DNA of 64,000 nucleotides, taken from assembly GCA_030695905.1 (NCBI GenBank), contig JAUYOL010000043.1, positions 998-64,997 of the forward strand. The letters run 5' to 3'. This document shows positions 19,838 through 55,775 of this stretch, in pieces; within the stretch, counting starts at the first letter, position 1, and every line of letters begins with the position of its first letter. The notes beneath the pieces were generated by a model. That model saw nothing but the letters and a program-made list of their open reading frames with translations, was not told the DNA's origin and ran no database searches. The position numbers were made by a program, and so were the translations under genes. The DNA is from Candidatus Omnitrophota bacterium. Lineage in GTDB: Bacteria > Omnitrophota > Gorgyraeia > 2-01-FULL-45-10.

Positions 19838-20247
19838 GAAATAATTCCTTTCTTTTCCATCTCTTTTATCTCTTCTTCAGATGGGAGTTTTGGCTCTTTT
19901 CTGGGAATGGGACCGACAGCTAATTGTTTGGAGGCCTCTAATGCTTTTTGCTGCGCAAAAGCCTCGGCTCTATTAACGTTTCTGGTATGTTCCGCTTCCA
20001 ATTCCCGCTCAGCTGCTATTTTCCGTCTTTCTTCTAATTTCTCCATATCCTGGGTAGGGCGTATCGTGGTTGCAGTTGGTATGGCATATTCCATCTGCTG
20101 TATTTGCTCTGCCGGAGGCTTCTCTTTGGGCTCTGACAAATACGGAGCTACATTACGTAAGAAAAGCATGTTAGTGACCAGTAGCATCACTATTGTAAAA
20201 AGAGCTATTATGAGAGCGGCTATGATGACGATTTTTTTTATTTTCAT
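19831..20247 (-). CDS. Small bitopic membrane protein with a charged coiled-coil tail, last gene of the pilin-like operon
   Basis: N-terminal TM IVIIAALIIALFTIVMLLV followed by an E/K/R-rich helix. Confidence 0.35.
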   Translation of the reverse strand: MKIKKIVIIAALIIALFTIVMLLVTNMLFLRNVAPYLSEPKEKPPAEQIQQMEYAIPTATTIRPTQDMEKLEERRKIAAERELEAEHTRNVNRAEAFAQQKALEASKQLAVGPIPRKEPKLPSEEEIKEMEKKGIISY

Positions 20248-20266
20248 CGCGCTATTCCTATTGCTT

Positions 20267-21532
20267 TTAAGTTTCTGCCCACAAAATCTTTAGATATACT
20301 ATTCTATTGTTCGAATCCCTGGCAGGAGGGAAAAACGCGGGCGCGGAATCTTCAAATCTCTGATCGTAATTATAATCTTTCGTATAGCCGCTGACCTTTT
20401 GGCCAGTGCTCGCGTTGAATGTTCCTACCGCGCCTCTTTCGTCCTGTGTTATTCCGCCAAATAATGTCAACGTGCCCTTAACTACCGAAGTATAATTTTC
20501 CAGATAGAACGATTTATTTAGTGCGAGTATATATCCGTCTATCTCAAGATTATATGGTGCGGCGGAATCAATAACAACGTTGTTTCCGGAAACAATACCG
20601 AATATGTCGGTGCTTGACGGGTTGGTCCTGGGGTCATTAGCATATAAAATATTGCCTGTAATATAAATATTTTTACCGGTACCCTGGTTTCCTACGGTAA
20701 GTTGGCCGGACAATATACCGGAAATGTTTAAGTCGCCATTGTTGACAAAAAGCGCCCCGCTTGGCGGCACCGGCACATTATAGTTATCCCAATCTTTATC
20801 GGCATTTGTTACATTCATTGTGCCGTTTGACAAAAGCGTTACGGTTGAATCGCCTATTAGATATAACCCGTTGCTTTGTTGCGCGGAAGCGCTTAAACTG
20901 CTTAAGATGTCCGCCGATGTCGGCAGTCTTATATTAGGCGCGCCCAGGGTTAGCGATTCTCTGAAGTCCGGATTATCCAATGGAGGCGGCCCATGATAGT
21001 AATGTATGGAAGTGCTCACACTGCTGACCGGCCCCTCAAAGGTGGGGTCATCTATTATATTTAATTGGCCGTTGGTATGCATAGGGCCTCTTATAGCATC
21101 GCCGCCTATAAACCATATGCGGGATCCGCTGCGTATTTCCGTATCTGTTAGATAAATGTATCTGGAGTAGGACATCGCTCGGACTGTAAGCGATAGTGTT
21201 TTTGTTGAATTCTTGTAGGTTCCGGTGGAAGTTAATACATAGGTAGGGAAGACGCCGCCGCCGGTTTGGCTCACTATTACATTAAATGTTCCTGTGTTGC
21301 CGGAAGAAAGAGTGATCGTTCCGCCAGTGCCCATTGTGCTGCCTGAGCGTAACTCCACAAATTTCTTAGCCAGGCCTGCCTCCGCAAGATAGTAAGCGCG
21401 TATACCATCGGTTGCTCTGGCTGCCAGGGACAGATCTCCGGATGCTATAGCAGCCAGGCCTATTATTATAGCAAGAATTATCATTGCTATAACCAGCGCG
21501 AATATAAGGGCAAATCCTTCTCTTGTTTTCAT
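20267..21532 (-). CDS. PilX-N-domain minor pilin-like protein with a C-terminal Gly/Asn/Thr-rich beta-helix-like domain
   Basis: The N-terminus REGFALIFALVIAMIILAIIIGLAAIASGDLSLAARATDGIRAYYLAEAGL matches the PilX_N/GspK-like pattern. The C-terminal half contains parallel beta-helix-like repeats (NIYITGNILYANDPR, NVVIDSAAPYNLEIDGYILALN). Confidence 0.5.
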   Translation of the reverse strand: MKTREGFALIFALVIAMIILAIIIGLAAIASGDLSLAARATDGIRAYYLAEAGLAKKFVELRSGSTMGTGGTITLSSGNTGTFNVIVSQTGGGVFPTYVLTSTGTYKNSTKTLSLTVRAMSYSRYIYLTDTEIRSGSRIWFIGGDAIRGPMHTNGQLNIIDDPTFEGPVSSVSTSIHYYHGPPPLDNPDFRESLTLGAPNIRLPTSADILSSLSASAQQSNGLYLIGDSTVTLLSNGTMNVTNADKDWDNYNVPVPPSGALFVNNGDLNISGILSGQLTVGNQGTGKNIYITGNILYANDPRTNPSSTDIFGIVSGNNVVIDSAAPYNLEIDGYILALNKSFYLENYTSVVKGTLTLFGGITQDERGAVGTFNASTGQKVSGYTKDYNYDQRFEDSAPAFFPPARDSNNRIVYLKILWAET

Positions 21533-21539
21533 ATCTTCT

Positions 21540-22076
21540 TTATTTTGGAGTATTCCTTAAATTGACGTTTGTAGTGACAGACCCCACAGAGCTTCTACCG
21601 CCCCTTTGTTGCAACACAGAAACATAAATCGTGACCAATTGTTCATCGGCTGAAGGTTCGCTGAAGGTTAAGGTTACATTTGAATTTCCAGGTGGTGTGT
21701 ATATGACTTTCTGTGTCGGATTTTGCGTGGGGCTTTCATAGACTATAGTGTTATTGGTTAGAAAAAATTTTCTGACAATCGGGGGGTCATCGCCAGGTTG
21801 TATAAATTGTATCTCGGTGCTGGGCATGGCCGGGGTAGTGCTGGAGGGAGCCCCTGAGCGTAAGCCGAATGTTCCGGCCGGCTCTTTTACTCCACGGATC
21901 ATAGTAGCGAGTGCAATATTGATATCACGTTGAAGATTGTAAGTTGCAATACTGTCTGAATAGGCATTCTGGGTCAGCATAAAAGCGCCTATGGCGGAAA
22001 TGAATAAGAAGACAACAATAACGCTTGCTATAAGAAGCTCTGTTAAACTATGCGCTTTTCTACTCGTGATTATCAT
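21540..22076 (-). CDS. Type IV pilin-like / pseudopilin protein (atypical prepilin leader)
   Basis: RKAHSLTELLIASVIVVFLFISAIGAF contains a hydrophobic helix with Glu at +5 relative to a possible A|H cleavage site. Confidence 0.45.
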   Translation of the reverse strand: MIITSRKAHSLTELLIASVIVVFLFISAIGAFMLTQNAYSDSIATYNLQRDINIALATMIRGVKEPAGTFGLRSGAPSSTTPAMPSTEIQFIQPGDDPPIVRKFFLTNNTIVYESPTQNPTQKVIYTPPGNSNVTLTFSEPSADEQLVTIYVSVLQQRGGRSSVGSVTTNVNLRNTPK

Positions 22077-22080
22077 TTTC

Positions 22081-22506
22081 TTAATTTATCTGAGGTTCGT
22101 TGGCTATATATGTTCCTACATACTCACGCATGGTTCTGTTCGTACCGAATAGTATCTCGCTCCACTGCATTTCAACAATGACGCTCTTATAATAGCCGAG
22201 GTCCCCGGAAACAGTAACAATTCGCCTGCCTTTGAAATCATCGGCTGTATTATTGGGCGTGCCCCTGGTATCTATTGATACGCCATTGATGTTACTGCTT
22301 AGTATATTGGCAAAAGGTAATTTTCGCAATCTTTCTATTTCTTGCTGGGCGGCATATGCGGCTTGCGTTTTGTGTTTGGCATAGGAGGCGCTATATTTGC
22401 CTACGATAAGGGTATTTACGGCGCTTAGCCATATGATGATGAGGATGAATATGCTGACGACGGCCTCTGTCAGCGTGAAACTTTTACGGGAGAAGAGTTT
22501 CATCAT
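22081..22506 (-). CDS. Type IV pilin-like / pseudopilin protein
   Basis: MMKLFSRKSFTLTEAVVSIFILIIIWLSAV contains a prepilin-like S|FTLTE with Glu at +5. It is the first gene of a four-gene operon. Confidence 0.5.
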   Translation of the reverse strand: MMKLFSRKSFTLTEAVVSIFILIIIWLSAVNTLIVGKYSASYAKHKTQAAYAAQQEIERLRKLPFANILSSNINGVSIDTRGTPNNTADDFKGRRIVTVSGDLGYYKSVIVEMQWSEILFGTNRTMREYVGTYIANEPQIN

Positions 22507-22512
22507 GCAGTG

Positions 22513-22541
22513 ATTATACACACGGGCAGATATGAATGCAA
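22513..22541 (-). promoter_or_regulatory. Sigma-70-type promoter TTGCAT-17-TATAAT placing the TSS at the ATG of the pilin-like gene (a leaderless mRNA)
   Basis: On the - strand the sequence reads TTGCATtcatatctgcccgtgtgTATAATcactgcATG. The -10 element ends 6 nt before ATG 22506. Confidence 0.35.
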
Positions 22542-22548
22542 GAAAAAA

Positions 22549-22577
22549 TTGACAAGCGGATTATCAAAGTGTATATT
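22549..22577 (+). promoter_or_regulatory. Sigma-70-type promoter TTGACA-17-TATATT for the DUF134 gene
   Basis: Perfect -35 element, 17-nt spacer, TATATT -10 element, about 55 nt upstream of ATG 22636. Confidence 0.4.
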
Positions 22578-22635
22578 ATGGGTATATACTCAAAACATAA
22601 CCTGTGAATAATTTTTATAAAATAGGTATTTAGAT

Positions 22636-22938
22636 ATGTCCGGCAGGCCGAAAATACATAGGATCGTTAGCAGAGAACCCAATACGAAACAGTTTAGTCC
22701 GCGGGGGACAAGGGGCAGGCCGGGCTATAATCAATTAAAGGTTGAGGAACTTGAAGCAATAAGGTTGTCAGACCATATGGGCTTAAAACAGGCCGAGGCG
22801 GCCAAGTGCATGGGGATAAGCCAACAGACATTCTCAAGGATATTAAGAAACGCCAGGAAATGCCTGGCAGAAGCCCTGGTTTTGGGCCATATCATAAAGG
22901 TTAATGGGGGAGTCTTCAAAATTGAGAAATGGACCTAA
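22636..22938 (+). CDS. DUF134/UPF0251-family predicted DNA-binding protein (sigma-70 region-4-like HTH)
   Basis: Family pattern FSPRG...L..EELEAIRLSDHMGLKQAEAAKCMGISQQTFSRILRNARKCLAEAL...GG. Confidence 0.6.
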   Translation: MSGRPKIHRIVSREPNTKQFSPRGTRGRPGYNQLKVEELEAIRLSDHMGLKQAEAAKCMGISQQTFSRILRNARKCLAEALVLGHIIKVNGGVFKIEKWT

Positions 22939-23065
22939 AATAGCTATCCTGGCAATTCTTTTAGTAGTTACTGCAACTGCATTGACAGGTTGCGTGTCAA
23001 TTCCGATCCCAAGTTCAATTCCGCTACCAAGCCAGATCCCTATAGTTAACTGGTTTCTAGTATAA
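22904..23065 (+). CDS. Tiny putative lipoprotein (53 aa) with a Pro-rich mature peptide, overlapping the DUF134 gene end
   Basis: ATG 22904 in another frame gives MGESSKLRNGPKIAILAILLVVTATALTGCVSIPIPSSIPLPSQIPIVNWFLV. It has a classic signal peptide and LTGC lipobox. It is too short for the ORF track. Confidence 0.3.
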   Translation: MGESSKLRNGPKIAILAILLVVTATALTGCVSIPIPSSIPLPSQIPIVNWFLV

Positions 23066-23158
23066 GCATACCCATAAAGACCGTTATAAATCCATTCTTG
23101 GCCCAATAGAGAACGTCCTATAATATATCTTATGTTAACTTGGCCTATTGAAAGTAAT

Positions 23159-23177
23159 AGCCACAAGTATCTGTGGC
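23159..23177. terminator. Hairpin GCCACA-agtatc-TGTGGC between convergent genes (candidate bidirectional terminator)
   Basis: Perfect 6-bp inverted repeat with T/A-rich flanks on both strands. It lies between the lipoprotein/DUF134 unit (+) and rluB-like gene (-). Confidence 0.3.
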
Positions 23178-23231
23178 TCAATGTGTTATATTATAATGTA
23201 AATTATATGTGGATAACTACTAATTCTACTT

Positions 23232-23981
23232 CTATTTGATAAGTTTGGATATTCTTGGCGGAGCTTCTTTTAATTCTAACCACTTTCCTGGCTTTAGCGA
23301 TCCAAGCTCAAATGGTCCGAACCGGGTCCTTATAAGACGTTTTACAGGCCTATTTAATGCCCCAAATAGGCGCCGTATTTCACGATTTTTACCTCCCCTG
23401 AGGCTTATCTCAACCCAAGTGAAATCATCGTTTTTAGATAGTATCCTTAGGCCTGTAGGCTGTGTTTTTTCACCGCGGCCGATATCTAAGCCCATTTTTA
23501 GGATATCCTTGATTTCACTGTCCATAATCTGGCCCATTATTTGAACCTCATAAGTGCGGCTGATTTCATAATGCGGATCTGTAAGCAGATTGCCGAATTT
23601 AGTATCGTTTGTGAATATTAATAAGCCTTCAGAGTCTAAGTCCAGGCGGCCTACCGGAAACATCCACCCATCCACATCATTAAGAAACTCATAAACCGTG
23701 GGCCTGTTAAGCTCATCTTTGCGGGTAGTTACATAGCCGGCAGGCTTATGTAATAAAATATACCTTTTTTTGGCTCTTGAAATAGGCTTTTCGTTTACCA
23801 GTATTTTATCGGAATTTCTTATTATGCGGCCAGGGTCGGTGACAGTTTTTCCATTTATTTTTACCTTCCCCGCCATTACAAGCCCAAGCGCTTGTTTTCT
23901 TGAGCAAAAACCCGACTTTGATATTGTTCGGATTATATTCTTTGATAGGCTTTTTTTGTGGTGCTTACTGCGGCTATTCAT
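23232..23981 (-). CDS. rluB: rRNA pseudouridine synthase, RsuA/RluB family, with N-terminal S4 domain
   Basis: S4-like N-terminus (SKNIIRTISKSGFCSRKQALGLVMAGKVKING). Catalytic motif PVGRLDLDSEGLLIFTND. Confidence 0.7.
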   Translation of the reverse strand: MNSRSKHHKKSLSKNIIRTISKSGFCSRKQALGLVMAGKVKINGKTVTDPGRIIRNSDKILVNEKPISRAKKRYILLHKPAGYVTTRKDELNRPTVYEFLNDVDGWMFPVGRLDLDSEGLLIFTNDTKFGNLLTDPHYEISRTYEVQIMGQIMDSEIKDILKMGLDIGRGEKTQPTGLRILSKNDDFTWVEISLRGGKNREIRRLFGALNRPVKRLIRTRFGPFELGSLKPGKWLELKEAPPRISKLIK

Positions 23982-24062
23982 CGCTTTTATTGTGTTATTT
24001 TCACTATTTTGCCTCTCCCCCGCCCGTTTTTACCCCCTCCCCCGGTATGAAAATGTGAGTTT

Positions 24063-36749: not shown

Positions 36750-38585
36750 CTATTTTTCCCTTCGCAGCTTCTCTATCCATATCATGAGTATCGATATGGC
36801 TGCCGGAGTTACTCCCGATATGCGTGAAGCCTGGCCCAGATTTATAGGCCTTATATTGGTTAACTTTTCCTTTATTTCGTTTGAAAGGCCGTGTATAGAC
36901 TTGTAGTCTATATTTTTCGGGACTTTTATCCTCTCGAGCTTATCAAATCTTCCTATGTCACTAAGCTGCCTCTTTATGAATCCCTCATACTTAATCTCTA
37001 TCTCCACCTCATTTATTTCGTCAATAGTGAGACCGCTATTTACAGGCCGGCCCTGACAGGCCGAGGCCGCAGAATTTACGGTCCCGGTCTGGGAAACGGT
37101 TTCATGATACGATACGCCGGGTCGCCTCAATACCTTTTCAAGTCTCGTCTCTTTTAATCTCTTTATCTCGCTTTCGATATTTTCTTTCTTTTTCATAACG
37201 GCCGCATATATTTTTTCATTGACCAGGCCTATTTGATAACCTATAGGTGTAAGCCTTAAGTCGGCATTGTCTTCTCTTAGTATGAGGCGGTATTCAACCC
37301 TTGAGGTGAACATTCTGTAAGGTTCTTTCGTCCCCTTTGTCACAAGATCATCTATGAGGACACCTATATAGGCTTGTGAGCGATCCAGTATAAGTGGTTT
37401 TTTGCCGGCAACTTTAAAGGCCGCGTTTATTCCTGCCATGAGCCCGAGGCTTGCCGCTTCTTCGTATCCTGTGGTGCCGTTTATCTGTCCGGCCAGGTAT
37501 AGGCCCGATATTGATTTTGTTTCCAGCGTGGGAAGTAACTGTGTAGGGTCAACGTAATCGTATTCGATGCCGTAGCCCGGCCTCGTAATAGATGCATTCT
37601 CCAGCCCTTCAATTGAGTGGACTATCTTTTCCTGCACATCTACAGGAAGGCTTGTGGATATGCCGTTCGGGTAGTATTCGTTTGTATTTAGCCCCTCCGG
37701 CTCTACAAATATGTGGTGCCTGTCGCGATCAGGAAAGCGATGTATCTTATCTTCTATAGAAGGACAATAGCGTACGCCCGTACCTTTTATCTTGCCGGTA
37801 AACAGCGGAGACCTGTCAAGGTTCGACCTTATGATGTCATGCGTATTTTTATTGGTGTAGGTTATGTAGCACGGCAGTTGGTCAGAGACGACTCTTTTAG
37901 TTTGAAATGAAAATGGCCTGATATCGCTATCGCCATGCTGGGCGGTCATCTTTTCAAAATGTATGGTCCTGCCGTCCAATCGCGCGCAGGTTCCGGTCTT
38001 GAGGCGGCCCATATTAAGTCCAAGCCTTTCCAGCGCCGCTGATAATCCTTTCGAAGGCTCTTCACCCGCCCTACCACCCTCAAAATGCTCCATTCCTATA
38101 TGTATAACGCCGTTTAGAAATGTCCCGGGTGTGACTATCAATGTCTTGCAGTAATATATTTCGCCTAAGGAAGTCTTAATCGCGTTAACAATACCACCTT
38201 CTACTATAATGTCTTCAACCATGCCCTGCCTTACTTCCAGATTTGGCTGGCCCTCTATTACGGATTTCATATATAATCGGTATGCGTGCCTGTCTATCTG
38301 GGCCCTTGTAGATCTTACAGCAGGGCCTTTCCTTGTATTTAGGAGCCTGAATTGTATAGCAGTGGCATCGGTAGCCTTGGCCATCTGCCCGCCAAGAGCG
38401 TCTATCTCTTTTACGAGTTGCCCCTTAGCAAGGCCGCCTATGGCAGGATTGCATGACATATGGCCTATGGTATCGACATTCATTGTTACAAGAAGCGTCT
38501 TGCATCCCAATCGAGCCGATGCCAGGGCCGCTTCGCATCCAGCGTGGCCTGCGCCTATGATTATTACGTCGTATTTTTGGTTCAT
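36750..38585 (-). CDS. mnmG: tRNA uridine 5-carboxymethylaminomethyl modification enzyme MnmG (GidA)
   Basis: N-terminal FAD motif YDVIIIGAGHAGCEAALASARLG. Full-length homology pattern, 611 aa. Confidence 0.9.
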   Translation of the reverse strand: MNQKYDVIIIGAGHAGCEAALASARLGCKTLLVTMNVDTIGHMSCNPAIGGLAKGQLVKEIDALGGQMAKATDATAIQFRLLNTRKGPAVRSTRAQIDRHAYRLYMKSVIEGQPNLEVRQGMVEDIIVEGGIVNAIKTSLGEIYYCKTLIVTPGTFLNGVIHIGMEHFEGGRAGEEPSKGLSAALERLGLNMGRLKTGTCARLDGRTIHFEKMTAQHGDSDIRPFSFQTKRVVSDQLPCYITYTNKNTHDIIRSNLDRSPLFTGKIKGTGVRYCPSIEDKIHRFPDRDRHHIFVEPEGLNTNEYYPNGISTSLPVDVQEKIVHSIEGLENASITRPGYGIEYDYVDPTQLLPTLETKSISGLYLAGQINGTTGYEEAASLGLMAGINAAFKVAGKKPLILDRSQAYIGVLIDDLVTKGTKEPYRMFTSRVEYRLILREDNADLRLTPIGYQIGLVNEKIYAAVMKKKENIESEIKRLKETRLEKVLRRPGVSYHETVSQTGTVNSAASACQGRPVNSGLTIDEINEVEIEIKYEGFIKRQLSDIGRFDKLERIKVPKNIDYKSIHGLSNEIKEKLTNIRPINLGQASRISGVTPAAISILMIWIEKLRREK

Positions 38586-38624
38586 AGCCTAAGTATTTTA
38601 GCGCGAATCCACTCGGATTACAAC

Positions 38625-38653
38625 TTGCTTTTTAGCGTTTTTTGGGGTATACT
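38625..38653 (+). promoter_or_regulatory. Sigma-70-type promoter TTGCTT-17-TATACT pointing into the mnmG-LOG intergenic region
   Basis: Exact 17-nt spacer. The predicted TSS coincides with the first G of a long hairpin at 38660. Confidence 0.35.
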
Positions 38654-38659
38654 ATTATT

Positions 38660-38740
38660 GGATGACAACAACATATTAACCCGTTCTCGGGTTTAAAGGT
38701 ACAAGTTACCTACAATGAGTTGTTGCCATCCTTTTTATTT
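38660..38740 (+). ncRNA. Candidate small RNA of about 80 nt: a 13-bp stem GGATGACAACAAC/GTTGTTGCCATCC enclosing the inner hairpin AACCCG-ttct-CGGGTT, followed by TTTTTATTT
   Basis: A promoter, a nested hairpin and a U-tract lie in the intergenic region between two - strand genes. No + strand CDS is present to be terminated. Confidence 0.3.
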
Positions 38741-38750
38741 GTAGGCATCC

Positions 38751-39410
38751 CTAAGTGGAGCAGATTTTGTAGAACTCGTTTATTGCGGCAAGCACTTCCT
38801 GAGGTTTATCTGCAACTGAAAATATTTTCAAATCCTTCTGGTCTATCGTTCCCTGAGTCAAGAGCGTTCCCTTTATCCATGATATGAGGCCCTTCCAGTA
38901 CTCTTTCCCCACTAATATTACAGGAAAAGGATCTACTCGCTCGGTCTGAACAAGCGTTATGGCTTCAAATAGCTCATCTAAGGTGCCGAACCCTCCGGGA
39001 AATACGACAAACGCCTTGGAGTACTTCGCGAACATTACCTTTCTGCAGAAAAAATATTTGAATTCAAGAAGTTTTGTGACATATCTATTAGGTTTCTGCA
39101 TTATCGGGATAAGTATGTTGAGGCCTATGGACTCTCCGCCGGCTTTTTTAGCCCCTTTGTTTCCCGCTTCCATTATGCCATGACCGGCGCCGGTAATGAC
39201 CGCATATCCATTTTTGGCAAGTAAGCACGCGGTATCTTCCGCTATCTTGTAGAATCTTTTTGTAGAAGCGGCATTGTTTTGAGCTGAGCCGAATATAGAT
39301 ACAGCCTTTTTAAGGCTTGAAAGTTCCTCGAATCCGTCAACGAATTCACTCATTATGCGGAATATGCGCCACGGGTCTTCTTTTATGAAGTCATTCTTCA
39401 GGAAAGTCAT
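38751..39410 (-). CDS. LOG-family protein (TIGR00730; cytokinin riboside 5'-monophosphate phosphoribohydrolase-like)
   Basis: Motifs GAGHGIMEAGNKGA and PGGFGTLDELFEAITLVQT. Confidence 0.7.
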   Translation of the reverse strand: MTFLKNDFIKEDPWRIFRIMSEFVDGFEELSSLKKAVSIFGSAQNNAASTKRFYKIAEDTACLLAKNGYAVITGAGHGIMEAGNKGAKKAGGESIGLNILIPIMQKPNRYVTKLLEFKYFFCRKVMFAKYSKAFVVFPGGFGTLDELFEAITLVQTERVDPFPVILVGKEYWKGLISWIKGTLLTQGTIDQKDLKIFSVADKPQEVLAAINEFYKICST

Positions 39411-39413
39411 TTA

Positions 39414-40544
39414 TTAGAGCTTCTTTACGGAGTCGTATGTGCCGTATGGATTTTGTTCTTTATCCTGATTGAGAGAGTCTAGTACCCATTCCCCGTCAAC
39501 TACAAATTTATATCTGTATTTTCCCGGGGTAAGGGTATATCGTTTTTCCCACAGGCCTTCGGCAGTGCGCAAGAGGCGGCTTTCGTCGTTCATCTTCCAA
39601 TGGTTAAAGTCTCCCACTATGTATACATCTTTTGCCGCAGGCGCGTTTAAATGAAACGCGGTATCTCTTTCGGCAGGTTCTTGCGTTGGCTGTATAGCGG
39701 GGATTCTCGTTGCTTGCGGTAATACAGCTTCTTCCGGCTTGAAAGCGCATTCAGCCAGAGCTTTTTTAAATTCCTCCGCCCCCTCCATCCTTATGACCTC
39801 ATGCGCAAGGGCTGTATAATCTATCGCGCCGTTGGATCTATTATCGAATTGCGTTACCGTGACGCCCTTGGCAACGGCCTTTTTTAGAGTTACGTTCAGT
39901 CTTATCACCGTTTCCAGAGTCTGTTCTTTGAAGAACGCTTTTATCTCGTCCAGTACGGTCTGTGAATATTTAATTCTTCTATCAAATAATGTGGCAAGCG
40001 CCTTAACTGATGGTGAATGGCCTATGTTTATCTTTATCAACTCTATCATGCCAAGCAATTTTCCTACGCCCATAAGCGAGAACGCGCTCATATCTATGGG
40101 CACTACGACAAGCTCCGCGGCGCGCAAAGCATTGAAGGTCAAGAATCCGAGGCTTGGAGGGCAGTCTATTACAACGTAGTCGTAGTTAAGCTGTGTTGAA
40201 TATATCGCCTCATGAAGTTTTGATACAGCGCCTTCGGTATCTTTTAATTCCTGCTCAAGTGTGCTTAATAGTATATTTGATGGTATGATATCGAGATTTT
40301 CCGTTACCCTGATGATGCAGTCGAGTATCGGCTTTCTTTTTTCCTCGTTATCCGTGAGAATATTATATATAGACTTATCCGCGGGCTGGCTTATCATTCC
40401 CAGGCCGAATGTAGCGTGCGCCTGAGGGTCGAGATCTATTAGTAAGACTTTTTTTCCTAAGTTTGCTATTGCGCCGGCGAGATTTATTGCAGTTGTGGTT
40501 TTGCCGCATCCACCTTTTTGATTTGCTATCGCTATCCTGTTCAT
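39414..40544 (-). CDS. ParA/MinD-family P-loop ATPase fused to a C-terminal CBM48 (AMPK-beta-type glycogen-binding) domain
   Basis: N-terminal deviant Walker A KGGCGKTTTAINLAGA and a ParA fold (DCPPSLG). The C-terminal 90 aa VYIVGDFNHWKMNDESRLLRTAEGLWEKRYTLTPGKYRYKFVVDGEWVLD match the glycogen-binding-domain pattern. Confidence 0.6.
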   Translation of the reverse strand: MNRIAIANQKGGCGKTTTAINLAGAIANLGKKVLLIDLDPQAHATFGLGMISQPADKSIYNILTDNEEKRKPILDCIIRVTENLDIIPSNILLSTLEQELKDTEGAVSKLHEAIYSTQLNYDYVVIDCPPSLGFLTFNALRAAELVVVPIDMSAFSLMGVGKLLGMIELIKINIGHSPSVKALATLFDRRIKYSQTVLDEIKAFFKEQTLETVIRLNVTLKKAVAKGVTVTQFDNRSNGAIDYTALAHEVIRMEGAEEFKKALAECAFKPEEAVLPQATRIPAIQPTQEPAERDTAFHLNAPAAKDVYIVGDFNHWKMNDESRLLRTAEGLWEKRYTLTPGKYRYKFVVDGEWVLDSLNQDKEQNPYGTYDSVKKL

Positions 40545-52547: not shown

Positions 52548-53619
52548 GTTTCTTCATCATTTCCTTAAAATTTTCGAATAGATACTTAGCATCATGAGGA
52601 CCCGGGCTGCACTCGGGGTGGAATTGGACAGAAAATATGGGCAGCTTCTTGTGCCTGATGCCCTCCAGCGTCTTGTCGTTCAGGTTCATGTGGGTAATTT
52701 CCAGCTCTTTTTTGTTTAATGTGTCTATGTCAACGCAGTAACCGTGATTTTGGACAGTTATGGCAACTTTTCCGGTCTTCAAATCCTTTACCGGCTGATT
52801 TCCGCCGTGATGTCCGAACTTTAGCTTATAAGTCTTGCCTCCAAATGCCTGGCCTAACATCTGATGTCCTAAGCATATTCCGAATATGGGAACCTTGCCG
52901 ATAAGTTCCCGTACCGTCTTTACTATGTATTGCAACGCTGCCGGGTCCCCCGGCCCGTTTGATAATAGGACGCCATGTGGTTTATGATCCAAGATCTCTT
53001 TGCTGGTAGCCGTTGCCGGCAAAACCATTACCTTGCAGTCGTTTTTTGCCAACTCTCGCAGCATGTTATATTTAACACCGCAATCGAGTACTACAACTTT
53101 GAATTTTCCTTTATTACTCCACTCGTAGCCTTTTTGCGCCACTACCTCTTTGACAAGGTCTCGTCCTTCAAGCCCAGGTGAGGCTTTTGCTTTGTCTATC
53201 AGACTCTTTTCGTTGAAATCAACCGTTGATAATATTGCTTTCATTGCGCCGGCTTCTCTGATATGCAGAGTGAGAGAGCGCGTATCGATGCCTTCTATGC
53301 CTAAGATATCAAATTCTTTTAAATATTCACCAAGGGATTTTTTAGAACGCCAGCTGCTGGCTATTTTTGAACATTCTTTGACTATGAAGCCCTCGACAAA
53401 AGGCTTGCGAGATTCCACGTCCTCGTCATTTACGCCGTAATTGCCTATCAAAGGATAGGTCATAGTTACCATCTGACCTTTGTAGGATGGGTCTGTGAGG
53501 ATCTCCTGGTAGCCCGCCATACTTGTATTAAAAACCACTTCCGCGCATCTTTCGCCGGCGGCGCCGAAAGACTTGCCTTTGTAGATCTTACCGTCTTCTA
53601 ACGCGAGTATCGCATTCAT
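52540..53619 (-). CDS. carA: Carbamoyl-phosphate synthase small subunit
   Basis: The N-terminal CPSase small-chain domain is followed by a class I GATase (GICLGHQ, HGGNQP). Confidence 0.9.
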
Positions 53620-55229
53620 TTCTGGGCTTTTCCGTACTTCAACGCGGCTGTTATAAAATCCCTGAAGAGGGGATGCGGCCTGTCCGGCTTCGATTTAAAT
53701 TCCGGATGGTATTGAACCGCTATAAAATATGGATGTTTTGTTATTTCCACGGTCTCAACGAGATTTTTCTTGGGATAAATACCGGAGAATGTCATGCCTT
53801 TTTTCTCCAACAAACCTTTGTATTTGTTATTAAATTCATATCTGTGCCGATGTCTTTCAAGCACCAGCCCCTTTTTATAGGCCTTATGCGCGAGACTGCC
53901 CTTCTTTATTCTGCAGGGATAAACACCCAAGCGCATTGTGCCGCCCATATCTTTTATGTGTTTTTGTTCCTCAAGCAGGCTTATAACGGGGTGTTTAGAT
54001 TTTTTATCGAACTCCGTTGAATTAGCATTTTTCAGTCTGCATACGTTTCGCGAAAATTCTATTACCGCGCACTGCATGCCAAGGCATAGTCCAAGGAACG
54101 GGATATTGTTTTCCCTGGCGTATCTTATAGCTTCAACCTTACCTTCTATCCCTCGATATCCAAATCCCCCCGGCACCAGTATTCCGGATACATCATCTAA
54201 GAGGTTCCCAATGCCATGTTTTTCTATCTCCTCGGAATCTATCTTCTTTATTGTAACCTTGGCATCATTATATATGCCGGCATGTACCAGCGATTCATAT
54301 ATGGATTTATAGGCGTCCTGTAAACCTATATATTTCCCTACGACGGCGACTGTGACCTTGTGCCGCGGATGTATTGCCCTTTCAACAACGAATTTTGCCC
54401 AATCTTTGAGGTCAGTTGACCTGGATTTTAATTTAAAATGATCAAGTATTATCTTGTCCAGCCCTTGTTCTTTGAAGATAAGAGGAACCTGATAAATAGA
54501 TTCCGCGTCCCTGGCTTCTATTACGGAGGCTTTATTGACATTGCAGAATAATGATATCTTTTCCTTCACGTCGTCCGAGAGCGCCTTCTCTGTCCTGCAA
54601 ATAAGAATATCGGGCTGGATGCCTATCTCGCGCAATTTCCCCACGCTATGCTGCGTAGGCTTTGTCTTTATCTCTTCTGCGCTGCGAACGTAAGGTATGA
54701 GAGTGAGGTGCACGTATAGGGCATTATGATATCCGACTTCAAGCCTGAACTGCCTGGCAGCTTCTAAGAACGGGAGGCTCTCTATATCTCCCACAGTTCC
54801 GCCTATCTCGACTATCAGTATCTCGGCGTTTGAAACTTGTGCGGCTTTTCTTACCCGGTCTTTTATTTCATTTGTAATATGCGGTATTACCTGGATAGTC
54901 TTACCGAGATAATCGCCGCGTCTTTCTCTGGCTATTACCGCGTTATAGACCTGGCCGGTAGTTGCGTTAGAGAATTTTGTTGTTTCGGTATTGATAAATC
55001 TTTCGTAATGGCCGAGGTCAAGATCCGTTTCAGCGCCATCTTCTGTCACATAAACTTCCCCATGCTGATAAGGATTCATTGTGCCCGGGTCAACATTAAT
55101 GTAGGGATCGAGTTTCATCATCGCAACCCTGAAGCCGCGTGATTCCATAATCTTGCCTATGGATGCTGAAGCGATGCCTTTACCCAGACTTGATATAACA
55201 CCACCGGTAGTAAAAATGTACTTTGTCAT
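53616..55229 (-). CDS. pyrG: CTP synthase
   Basis: N-terminal [17 protein letters not shown]. GATase region GLCLGMQ. 537 aa. Confidence 0.9.
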
Positions 55230-55253: not shown

Positions 55254-55315
55254 AAAAAAATAGCGTTTTTTTTTAGGCCGGGATTATCCGGTTTTCAAAA
55301 AAAACGCTATTTTTT
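55254..55315 (-). terminator. 62-bp perfect palindrome (A7-TAGCG-T9 ... A8-CGCTA-T6) enclosing a CCGG-GATTAT-CCGG hairpin, sitting in the pyrG leader; a candidate attenuator/intrinsic terminator
   Basis: On the - strand transcript a 13-bp stem UAGCGU8/A8CGCUA is followed by U7. Ten nt later come the pyrG RBS AAGGGAAG and the ATG. A TTGACA-16-TGnTACAAT promoter lies at 55347-55374 (- strand), upstream of the structure. Confidence 0.4.
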
Positions 55316-55376: not shown

Positions 55377-55775
55377 TTATTTTTGCGCGAACTTTTTTGC
55401 TACGCGCCTCTCTTTATTTTTATTGTAAAGCTTTTCGCCCAACCACTCTCTGGCTAACGTATCCTTATCGACGCCTTTTTCTTTCCAGTCGTATTCCATA
55501 ATAACGGCTGTCTTAAGGACTTTCCATACGGGTTCGCTTAAAAGATTCGGCTTCTTTTCATATAATCTGTCCAATTTTTTACAATAAAACGGAGCGTCTT
55601 TGGATATCGTAACGCCCTGTTTTTTTACATCTTTAATAAAATCCTTAGCAAGCTGAATTCGCGCTTTTTTATCTACCTTTAGCCAATCGTTTCCTGTGAC
55701 GGGTTTGCCTTGAGCGAACGCAAGCCCTGCGCAAAAAGCAATTATAAGTAGTGCAGATATTATTTTTCTCATCAT
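55377..55775 (-). CDS. Small secreted protein of unknown function
   Basis: RBS GGAGG. Signal peptide MMRKIISALLIIAFCAGLAFA. Lys-rich mature part. Confidence 0.35.
   Translation of the reverse strand: MMRKIISALLIIAFCAGLAFAQGKPVTGNDWLKVDKKARIQLAKDFIKDVKKQGVTISKDAPFYCKKLDRLYEKKPNLLSEPVWKVLKTAVIMEYDWKEKGVDKDTLAREWLGEKLYNKNKERRVAKKFAQK

Follow-up and report, generated by a model that had tools for sequence, protein, structure and literature searches.

The DNA analysed here, a 64,000-nt stretch of a Candidatus Omnitrophota genome (the window), carries a potential RNA element in the 165-bp spacer between mnmG (36750-38585, - strand; TIGR00136 match, 870 bits) and a TIGR00730/LOG-family gene (38751-39410, - strand). 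The question raised by this locus is whether the element encodes an RNA of its own or, alternatively, serves its neighbors as a terminator, an antisense regulator, a segment of their mRNA or a DNA site. An earlier note had placed both flanking genes on the - strand, as we also found, and had proposed a + strand gene, complete with promoter and terminator, for a small RNA (sRNA) of ~80 nt that contains no ORF. Comparative evidence supports that proposal, with transcription predicted from sequence, and we consider it likely, at a probability of roughly 0.8, that the element is a real, independently transcribed + strand gene for a structured sRNA. Features of the element are collected in Table 1.

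Table 1. Features of the sRNA element and of the adjoining mnmG promoter-like site in the window.
Feature	Position	Strand	Basis and remarks
-35 hexamer TTGCTT	38625-38630	+	Read in sequence; conserved cTTGc in homologue alignment
-10 element GTATACT (hexamer TATACT at 38648-38653)	38647-38653	+	Read in sequence; homologue alignment
Putative +1 and P1 5' arm GGAUGACAACAAC	38660-38672	+	A38665 in invariant A·C mismatch; pairs 11-13 covary
Junction J1/2 AUAUU	38673-38677	+	5-8 nt in homologues, with 1-2 nt indels; sequence varies
P2 hairpin AACCCG-UUCU-CGGGUU	38678-38693	+	Folding and covariation
Junction J2/3 UAA	38694-38696	+	Homologue alignment
P3 hairpin AGGUA-CAAGU-UACCU	38697-38711	+	Folding
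Junction J3/1 ACAAUGA	38712-38718	+	Homologue alignment
P1 3' arm GUUGUUGCCAUCC	38719-38731	+	C38726 faces A38665
T-tract TTTTTATTT	38732-38740	+	With P1, predicted intrinsic terminator; would mark RNA 3' end
mnmG promoter-like site TTGTAA-17-TAAAAT	38595-38623	-	Promoter scan; back-to-back with sRNA -35, outside RNA

In the window, GGATGACAACAAC (38660-38672) pairs with GTTGTTGCCATCC (38719-38731) to form a 13-bp stem, P1, and the T-tract follows this stem directly, as had been stated before. The stem had been described as containing one G-U pair; its length was correct, but the + strand has an A·C mismatch at the odd pair (A38665·C38726), which becomes a G·U pair on the - strand only. Similarly, the 6-bp hairpin inside the stem (P2, AACCCG-TTCT-CGGGTT) had been recognized, but a second enclosed hairpin (P3, AGGTA-CAAGT-TACCT) had been overlooked. 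Since P1 encloses two hairpins, the RNA would form a Y-shaped three-way junction. Folding of positions 38661-38741 of the + strand gave -24.4 kcal/mol (z = -4.6), with none of 200 shuffled sequences being equally stable, and z-scores for the window and the homologues tried ranged from -4.6 to -5.9. The element occurs as a single copy within the 64-kb window.

Upstream of P1, the earlier note had described a strong sigma-70-like promoter (TTGCTT-17-TATACT) with its predicted start on the first base of the stem. Both hexamers and the 17-nt spacing are indeed present, and G38660, the seventh nucleotide past the -10 hexamer, opens P1. However, the word "strong" was an overstatement, since the site matches consensus at only 8 of 12 positions (3/6 in the -35 and 5/6 in the -10 hexamer), i.e., below the threshold of our promoter scan, which consequently did not include it. 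The case for an sRNA promoter is made by its conservation in all 78 homologues examined and not by its match to consensus.

Omnitrophota is a large phylum known almost entirely from metagenome-assembled genomes (MAGs), and the closest relatives of the window's LOG protein all came from Candidatus Omnitrophota MAGs. A scan of GTDB species genomes guided by the LOG protein produced 80 loci, 22 of which have LOG followed by mnmG, and the element was present in the LOG-mnmG spacer (142-652 bp) at 22 of these 22. Since these loci were found through a protein, the sample is unbiased with respect to the RNA. In the window and the 22 genome homologues, P1 shows no variation in its outer 10 bp, and column identity averages 86%. 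When metagenome contigs were searched with a DNA pattern made up of only the two outer P1 10-mers, 107 matches in 103 stretches were obtained. About 67 of the metagenome loci are true members that have the same interior and flanks, and ~40 of the 107 matches were discarded as chance because the interior and flanks of the RNA were missing; in this metagenome set, invariance of the outer P1 10-mers is built in by the search pattern. The total came to 90 loci and 68 distinct RNA sequences with a core of ~72 nt.

A covariance model, R1, was built from the 68 distinct + strand sequences and found exactly one copy per locus in the 90 loci, with scores of 60-95 bits. No convincing R1 match was obtained near LOG in more distant Omnitrophota (L026-L042) or in other phyla. 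These results suggest that the RNA family is confined, as far as sampled, to one Candidatus Omnitrophota clade. A marginal R1 match (19.5 bits, E = 0.004) was seen in an unrelated uncultured bacterium (L066, 3806-3893); its junction layout is similar, its P1 sequence is different, and it is probably due to chance.

Promoter and terminator features were counted in the 78 distinct instances with complete flanks. TTGnnn followed after 16-17 nt by TATACT (72/78) or TATAAT (6/78) was found in every one of them, and the distance from the -10 hexamer to G+1 was 6-7 nt in 77 instances and 10 nt in one. In the alignment, a GTATA core is invariant and the C that follows is nearly so; the sequence between the two hexamers drifts. 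We propose that a sigma-70-type promoter of this form (TTGCTT-17-TATACT in the window) would start transcription at or near G38660. At the other end of the element, P1 leads directly into a T-tract (at least 6 T in the first 9 nt) in 65 of the 78 homologues. The remaining 13 have a separate GC-rich hairpin and T-run no more than 70 nt downstream on the same strand, preceded by a single-stranded, AU-rich linker, and their predicted RNAs are ~115-135 nt long. On the opposite strand, these 13 downstream hairpins have an A-run before them and no T-run after them, which indicates that they are unidirectional terminators. In the window, P1 and its U-tract would end transcription and release a compact RNA of ~75-80 nt. 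A terminator scan missed P1 because its "loop" is a 46-nt, branched insert.

The alternative against which the sRNA had originally been set, namely that the element is only the - strand terminator of the LOG gene, fails: that strand reads GUCAUCC AAUAAUAGUAUAC at this point, and the stem is followed there by AAUAAUAG and not by a U-tract. We therefore rejected the element as a mere LOG terminator. In a broader form, the element would be a terminator, unidirectional or bidirectional, that lies between convergent or tandem genes and yields no RNA product. A stable stem lying between an A-run and a T-run, just past the LOG stop codon, is in keeping with this idea, and the GC-containing stem followed by TTTTTATTT on the transcribed strand resembles Rho-independent terminators in general. 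However, there is no + strand gene upstream to be terminated, as mnmG lies on the - strand, and the - strand stem lacks the U-tract; moreover, a promoter dedicated to the element lies 7 nt upstream of the stem. Whereas the stems of terminators usually drift without constraint, P1 keeps 10 invariant bp and encloses 46 nt arranged in two covarying hairpins, with the conserved promoter travelling along. Even in the 13 members where a separate hairpin takes the place of P1 as terminator, P1 does not vary. Considering these points, we regard a terminator without an RNA product as extremely improbable.

Alignment of orthologous spacers had been suggested as a check for compensatory base changes, and when this was done such changes were found in both inner hairpins. 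Among the 68 distinct sequences, 92.4-92.7% of cells pair under the three-helix model and 11-12 of 24 pairs change on both sides, and no measure attained its observed value in any of 500 column shuffles. When the 3' partners were slid as a control, pairing amounted to only 23-48%. A model-fitted alignment agreed with the first alignment on both pairing and covariation. P2 is well supported, with 4 of 6 pairs changing on both sides (e.g., CCCG/CGGG to CCAG/CUGG, UCCG/CGGA, or CCGG/CCGG), and its loop is UUNN with few exceptions, among them the longer UCAAU or UUAAU loops of L025, L082, and L093. In P3, two-sided changes were seen at each of the 5 pairs of the model-fitted alignment (e.g., GGCAC/GUGCC and GGUUC/UAACC), in few sequences per pair. 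For P1, covariation supports the inner three pairs only (pairs 11-13); the outer ten have no such support because they never vary. No loop-loop covariation between P2 and P3 was seen by eye in the homologue alignment.

The junctions J1/2, J2/3, and J3/1 vary in both length and sequence, with indels of 1-2 nt that exclude a conserved reading frame. A mechanical ORF of 78 aa (38460-38696) covers the promoter and half of the RNA. A mini-ORF starting from AUG38662 (MTTTY in the window) was also considered and rejected, since neither its stop position nor its frame is conserved and L019 reads through.

The invariance of the outer P1 arms raises the possibility of an element acting at the DNA level, in which the 10-mers GGATGACAAC and GTTGCCATCC would be protein-bound half-sites of an imperfect inverted repeat, e.g., an operator of the divergent mnmG and sRNA promoters. 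No position of either arm varies, not even the asymmetric one, which is more like sequence-specific recognition than pairing alone, and the first arm starts at the putative +1. Conversely, compensatory changes in P2, P3, and inner P1 show selection on single-strand folding, half-sites separated by 46 bp would have an unusual spacing, and a target search with the P1 10-mer revealed no enrichment elsewhere in the window (16 matches with at most two mismatches vs 13.9 expected). An operator thus seems very improbable to us.

A further question is which of the two strands carries the functional RNA. Read on the + strand, the invariant pair 6-72 is an A·C; on the - strand it becomes a G·U, and the same is true of pair 22-35 in 37 of 68 cells. 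At pair 11-67, 26 of the 68 sequences have a G·U on the + strand. Base-pair chemistry fails to single out the + strand and slightly favors the - strand. On one reading, the functional molecule would be a structured 3'-UTR or intercistronic element of a LOG-mnmG mRNA, such as a stabilizer or processing site, with the + strand promoter and T-tract being incidental. Indeed, 96.6% of cells pair on the - strand compared with 92.4% on the + strand, RNAalifold returned -26.75 vs -22.65 kcal/mol, and minimum free energies were -31 kcal/mol (z = -4.1) for a 101-nt - strand segment and -24.4 kcal/mol for the + strand segment, although at 81 nt the latter is of different length. G·U pairs are, in addition, a common recognition feature, and the invariant odd pair would be one of these instead of an A·C mismatch. 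Even so, a functional - strand would leave unexplained the fixed-distance + strand promoter in 78 of 78 homologues, the + strand terminators of the 13 homologues without a T-tract, and both the inverted modules and the loci without LOG or mnmG that are described below. R1 scored 93 bits on the + strand of the window and 35 bits on the - strand, which is weak evidence given that the model was trained on + strand sequences. We therefore chose the + strand on its promoter and terminator anatomy, base-pair counts being indecisive, and consider it improbable that the - strand is the functional molecule. It is possible that the A·C pair is a selected recognition feature of the + strand RNA, or that the - strand copy also matters.

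Genomic context bears on both the autonomy of the gene and its function. In ~95% of loci, the RNA gene lies in the LOG-mnmG spacer, antisense to both genes; it is convergent with the unit formed by a ParA-like gene and LOG and is usually divergent from mnmG. The ParA/MinD-type ATPase gene upstream of LOG in the window (39414-40544, - strand) has an AMPK1_CBM/CBM48-like carbohydrate-binding domain fused at its C-terminus. In at least three lineages (L014, L099/L172, and L159), promoter, RNA, and terminator are inverted together, as one module, relative to LOG->mnmG. These inverted loci belong to three different RNA subtypes, and the nearest relatives of each are in the usual orientation. Furthermore, a variant class (L113, L136, L143/L176, L123, L164, L167, L180, and L097) has no mnmG, and LOG stands beside the RNA only in L167 and L180. 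This class keeps the promoter, P1, and P2, and P3 is either missing or has an A-rich linker or a small, unrelated hairpin in its place; P3 is dispensable. In the three variant loci that lack LOG and have enough flanking sequence (L113, L136, and L143/L176), the RNA is still convergent with the same ParA-like ATPase gene as in the window. A promoter at fixed distance, a constant same-strand terminator, and a module that flips and moves as one together indicate an independent transcription unit.

Since the usual arrangement is antisense, a cis-acting role must also be weighed, in which the RNA would pair or collide with - strand read-through from LOG into mnmG and thereby set the co-expression of mnmG with LOG. 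Its identity would be unchanged and only its function would differ, the route being either RNase III cleavage of the duplex or transcriptional interference. Cis-encoded antisense RNAs lie opposite intercistronic or 3'-UTR regions, and the present RNA likewise has structured hairpins, lies opposite two genes of the same direction in ~95% of loci, and in some genomes overlaps the region that an mnmG or read-through transcript crosses. The LOG stop codon of the window is just 19 nt away from the element and, because the stem on the - strand is followed by AAUAAUAG and lacks a U-tract, LOG transcripts probably enter it. In six genomes (L003, L006, L007, L011, L017, and L019), the mnmG ATG is ~10-25 nt from the sRNA -35 hexamer; there is no room for a separate mnmG promoter, and the mnmG mRNA must start within or past the sRNA gene and contain its antisense. 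That the - strand copy folds even better would fit selection on both transcripts.

Several observations oppose such a role. Cis-antisense RNAs have a fixed position relative to their target, whereas the orientation of this RNA varies; at the inverted loci (L014, L099/L172, and L159) it is sense, and its terminator would block read-through. The variant class persists without mnmG nearby and, at several loci, without LOG. At many loci, the window among them, mnmG has its own promoter-like site downstream of the sRNA gene. Finally, an antisense role alone would require neither invariant helices nor covarying hairpins. Taken together, we think it unlikely, but worth keeping in mind, that the RNA is a cis-antisense regulator, and we regard this as the chief competitor of a protein-bound or trans-acting RNA.

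Additional features of the spacers were noted. The mnmG promoter-like sites end 6-9 nt before the mnmG ATG. The window has TAAAAT-9 nt-ATG, and relatives (L010, L012, L013, L014, L024, and L028) have TTGACC-17-TATAAT-8 nt-ATG, sites of this type being found in relatives whose spacers are longer. The short distance suggests that the mnmG mRNA may be leaderless, or nearly so, in this Omnitrophota clade. In L016, L018, and L023, LOG and the RNA gene are separated by an inserted gene, which encodes a single-domain response-regulator receiver of 126 aa; that of L018 (3151-3531) matches PF00072 at 1e-30, and the RNA module downstream is intact. The 567-bp LOG-mnmG spacer of L009 (3140-3707) contains several GGGGTCTGACCC / GGGTCAGACCCC palindromic motifs and repeated AACCTGGTTAGATACGAC segments that resemble a small repeat or MITE-like insertion. 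Lastly, GGATGCCTACAA (38739-38750, - strand), located right past the LOG stop codon, repeats in part and in direct orientation (10/12) the P1 arm GGATGGCAACAA, which begins after another 19 nt; this repeat was seen in the window only and may be due to chance.

The RNA was compared to known families and systems. The Rfam covariance search that had been proposed earlier was run, and the RNA matches no catalogued family: among the 4227 covariance models of Rfam 15, nothing reached gathering score over the whole window and nothing was found at E <= 10 in positions 38400-38950. ARAGORN detected no tRNA or tmRNA gene in the window. There were no phage or plasmid matches to the element, and a repeat or mobile element was rejected on this basis and on its single copy in the window. 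Three viral contigs matched the P1 pattern, but the promoter and interior were missing and these matches look like chance. Literature on Omnitrophota sRNAs or motifs yielded no description of this RNA, and we know of no lineage-specific noncoding RNAs described in Omnitrophota. Judged by sequence comparison, this is a new RNA family of an ordinary kind, which would work like a stand-alone bacterial sRNA gene and not like a tRNA-like RNA: it has its own conserved promoter, a same-strand terminator, and no conserved reading frame. As far as the evidence goes, it does not represent a new kind of biology.

A riboswitch or other cis-acting leader does not agree with the data, since the next feature on the same strand is the end of the convergent LOG gene in ~95% of loci. 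In addition, riboswitches have a conserved junction core and variable stems, whereas the junctions of this RNA vary and P1 is invariant. Among the closest known systems are trans-acting sRNA genes (e.g., Hfq-dependent ones), which have their own sigma-70 promoter and a Rho-independent terminator. Like these, the Omnitrophota gene is stand-alone and intergenic, has a conserved promoter, and would produce an RNA of ~75-135 nt that ends in a hairpin with a U-tail and contains no ORF. In the variant class, an AU- or A-rich single-stranded linker precedes a canonical terminator. Unlike trans-acting sRNAs, however, its invariant nucleotides lie inside helices P1 and P2 and no conserved unpaired seed is visible, and the "terminator" stem of most members doubles as the closing helix of a three-way junction. 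Y RNAs and other small RNAs bound by proteins have a conserved terminal stem built from their 5' and 3' ends. The RNA described here recalls these in its length (~70-110 nt), a terminal helix made from both ends, invariant sequence with a non-Watson-Crick feature, a variable interior, and a 3' U-tail, a likeness that serves as a lead only. In contrast to Y RNAs, it has no tRNA-like module, its sequence is unrelated, and it matches nothing in Rfam, which includes Y_RNA and the bacterial YrlA.

With respect to function, we tentatively favor, at somewhat less than even odds, an RNA that acts in trans and whose invariant P1 helix and P2 loop would be read sequence-specifically by a protein partner. 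We propose that the RNA would fold into a three-way junction composed of the 13-bp P1 with its invariant A·C, P2 with a UUNN tetraloop, and P3. Reading by a protein is preferred over seed pairing because the invariant nucleotides are helical and the junctions drift, and the invariance of P1 in the 13 members that have a separate terminator is a further point in its favor. A more speculative extension, which we hold to be rather improbable, is that the RNA is a clade-wide "housekeeping" component of a ribonucleoprotein, with a dedicated protein that reads the A·C-bearing terminal helix and the UUNN loop, perhaps tied in function to the neighboring tRNA-U34 modification genes (mnmG, mnmL), or else that both strands are functional as a sense hairpin in a LOG-mnmG mRNA and an antisense sRNA. 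The P2 loop triplets UUC, UUU, and UUG are the anticodons of MnmG substrate tRNAs. The UUA loops and the 4-nt loop size, however, speak against simple anticodon mimicry by this loop.

As a compact set of 68 sequences with a promoter, a terminator, and covariation in two helices, the family is suited to RNA family databases and would improve the annotation of MAGs. Promoter and terminator usage in Omnitrophota can also be read directly from the family, and its invariant A·C helix and very stable site beside mnmG and LOG are handles for finding a partner or target.

Two further features of the window were recorded. In E. coli, the replication origin adjoins mnmG. An origin at the element was rejected, since the GC skew changes sign near 20-24 kb and not at 38.6 kb, and the genes to either side of the element share one strand. 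Around 20000-24000, the skew is +0.03 to +0.19 on the left and about -0.03 to -0.11 on the right, and the cumulative skew peaks near 22 kb; the sign change may mark a replication landmark or simply reflect a change of gene strand. At 55255-55315, between the - strand ORFs 55377-55775 and 53616-55229, there is an AT-rich inverted repeat with 30-nt arms (83% complementary), a 1-nt gap, and flanking A and T runs, which is probably a long terminator hairpin.
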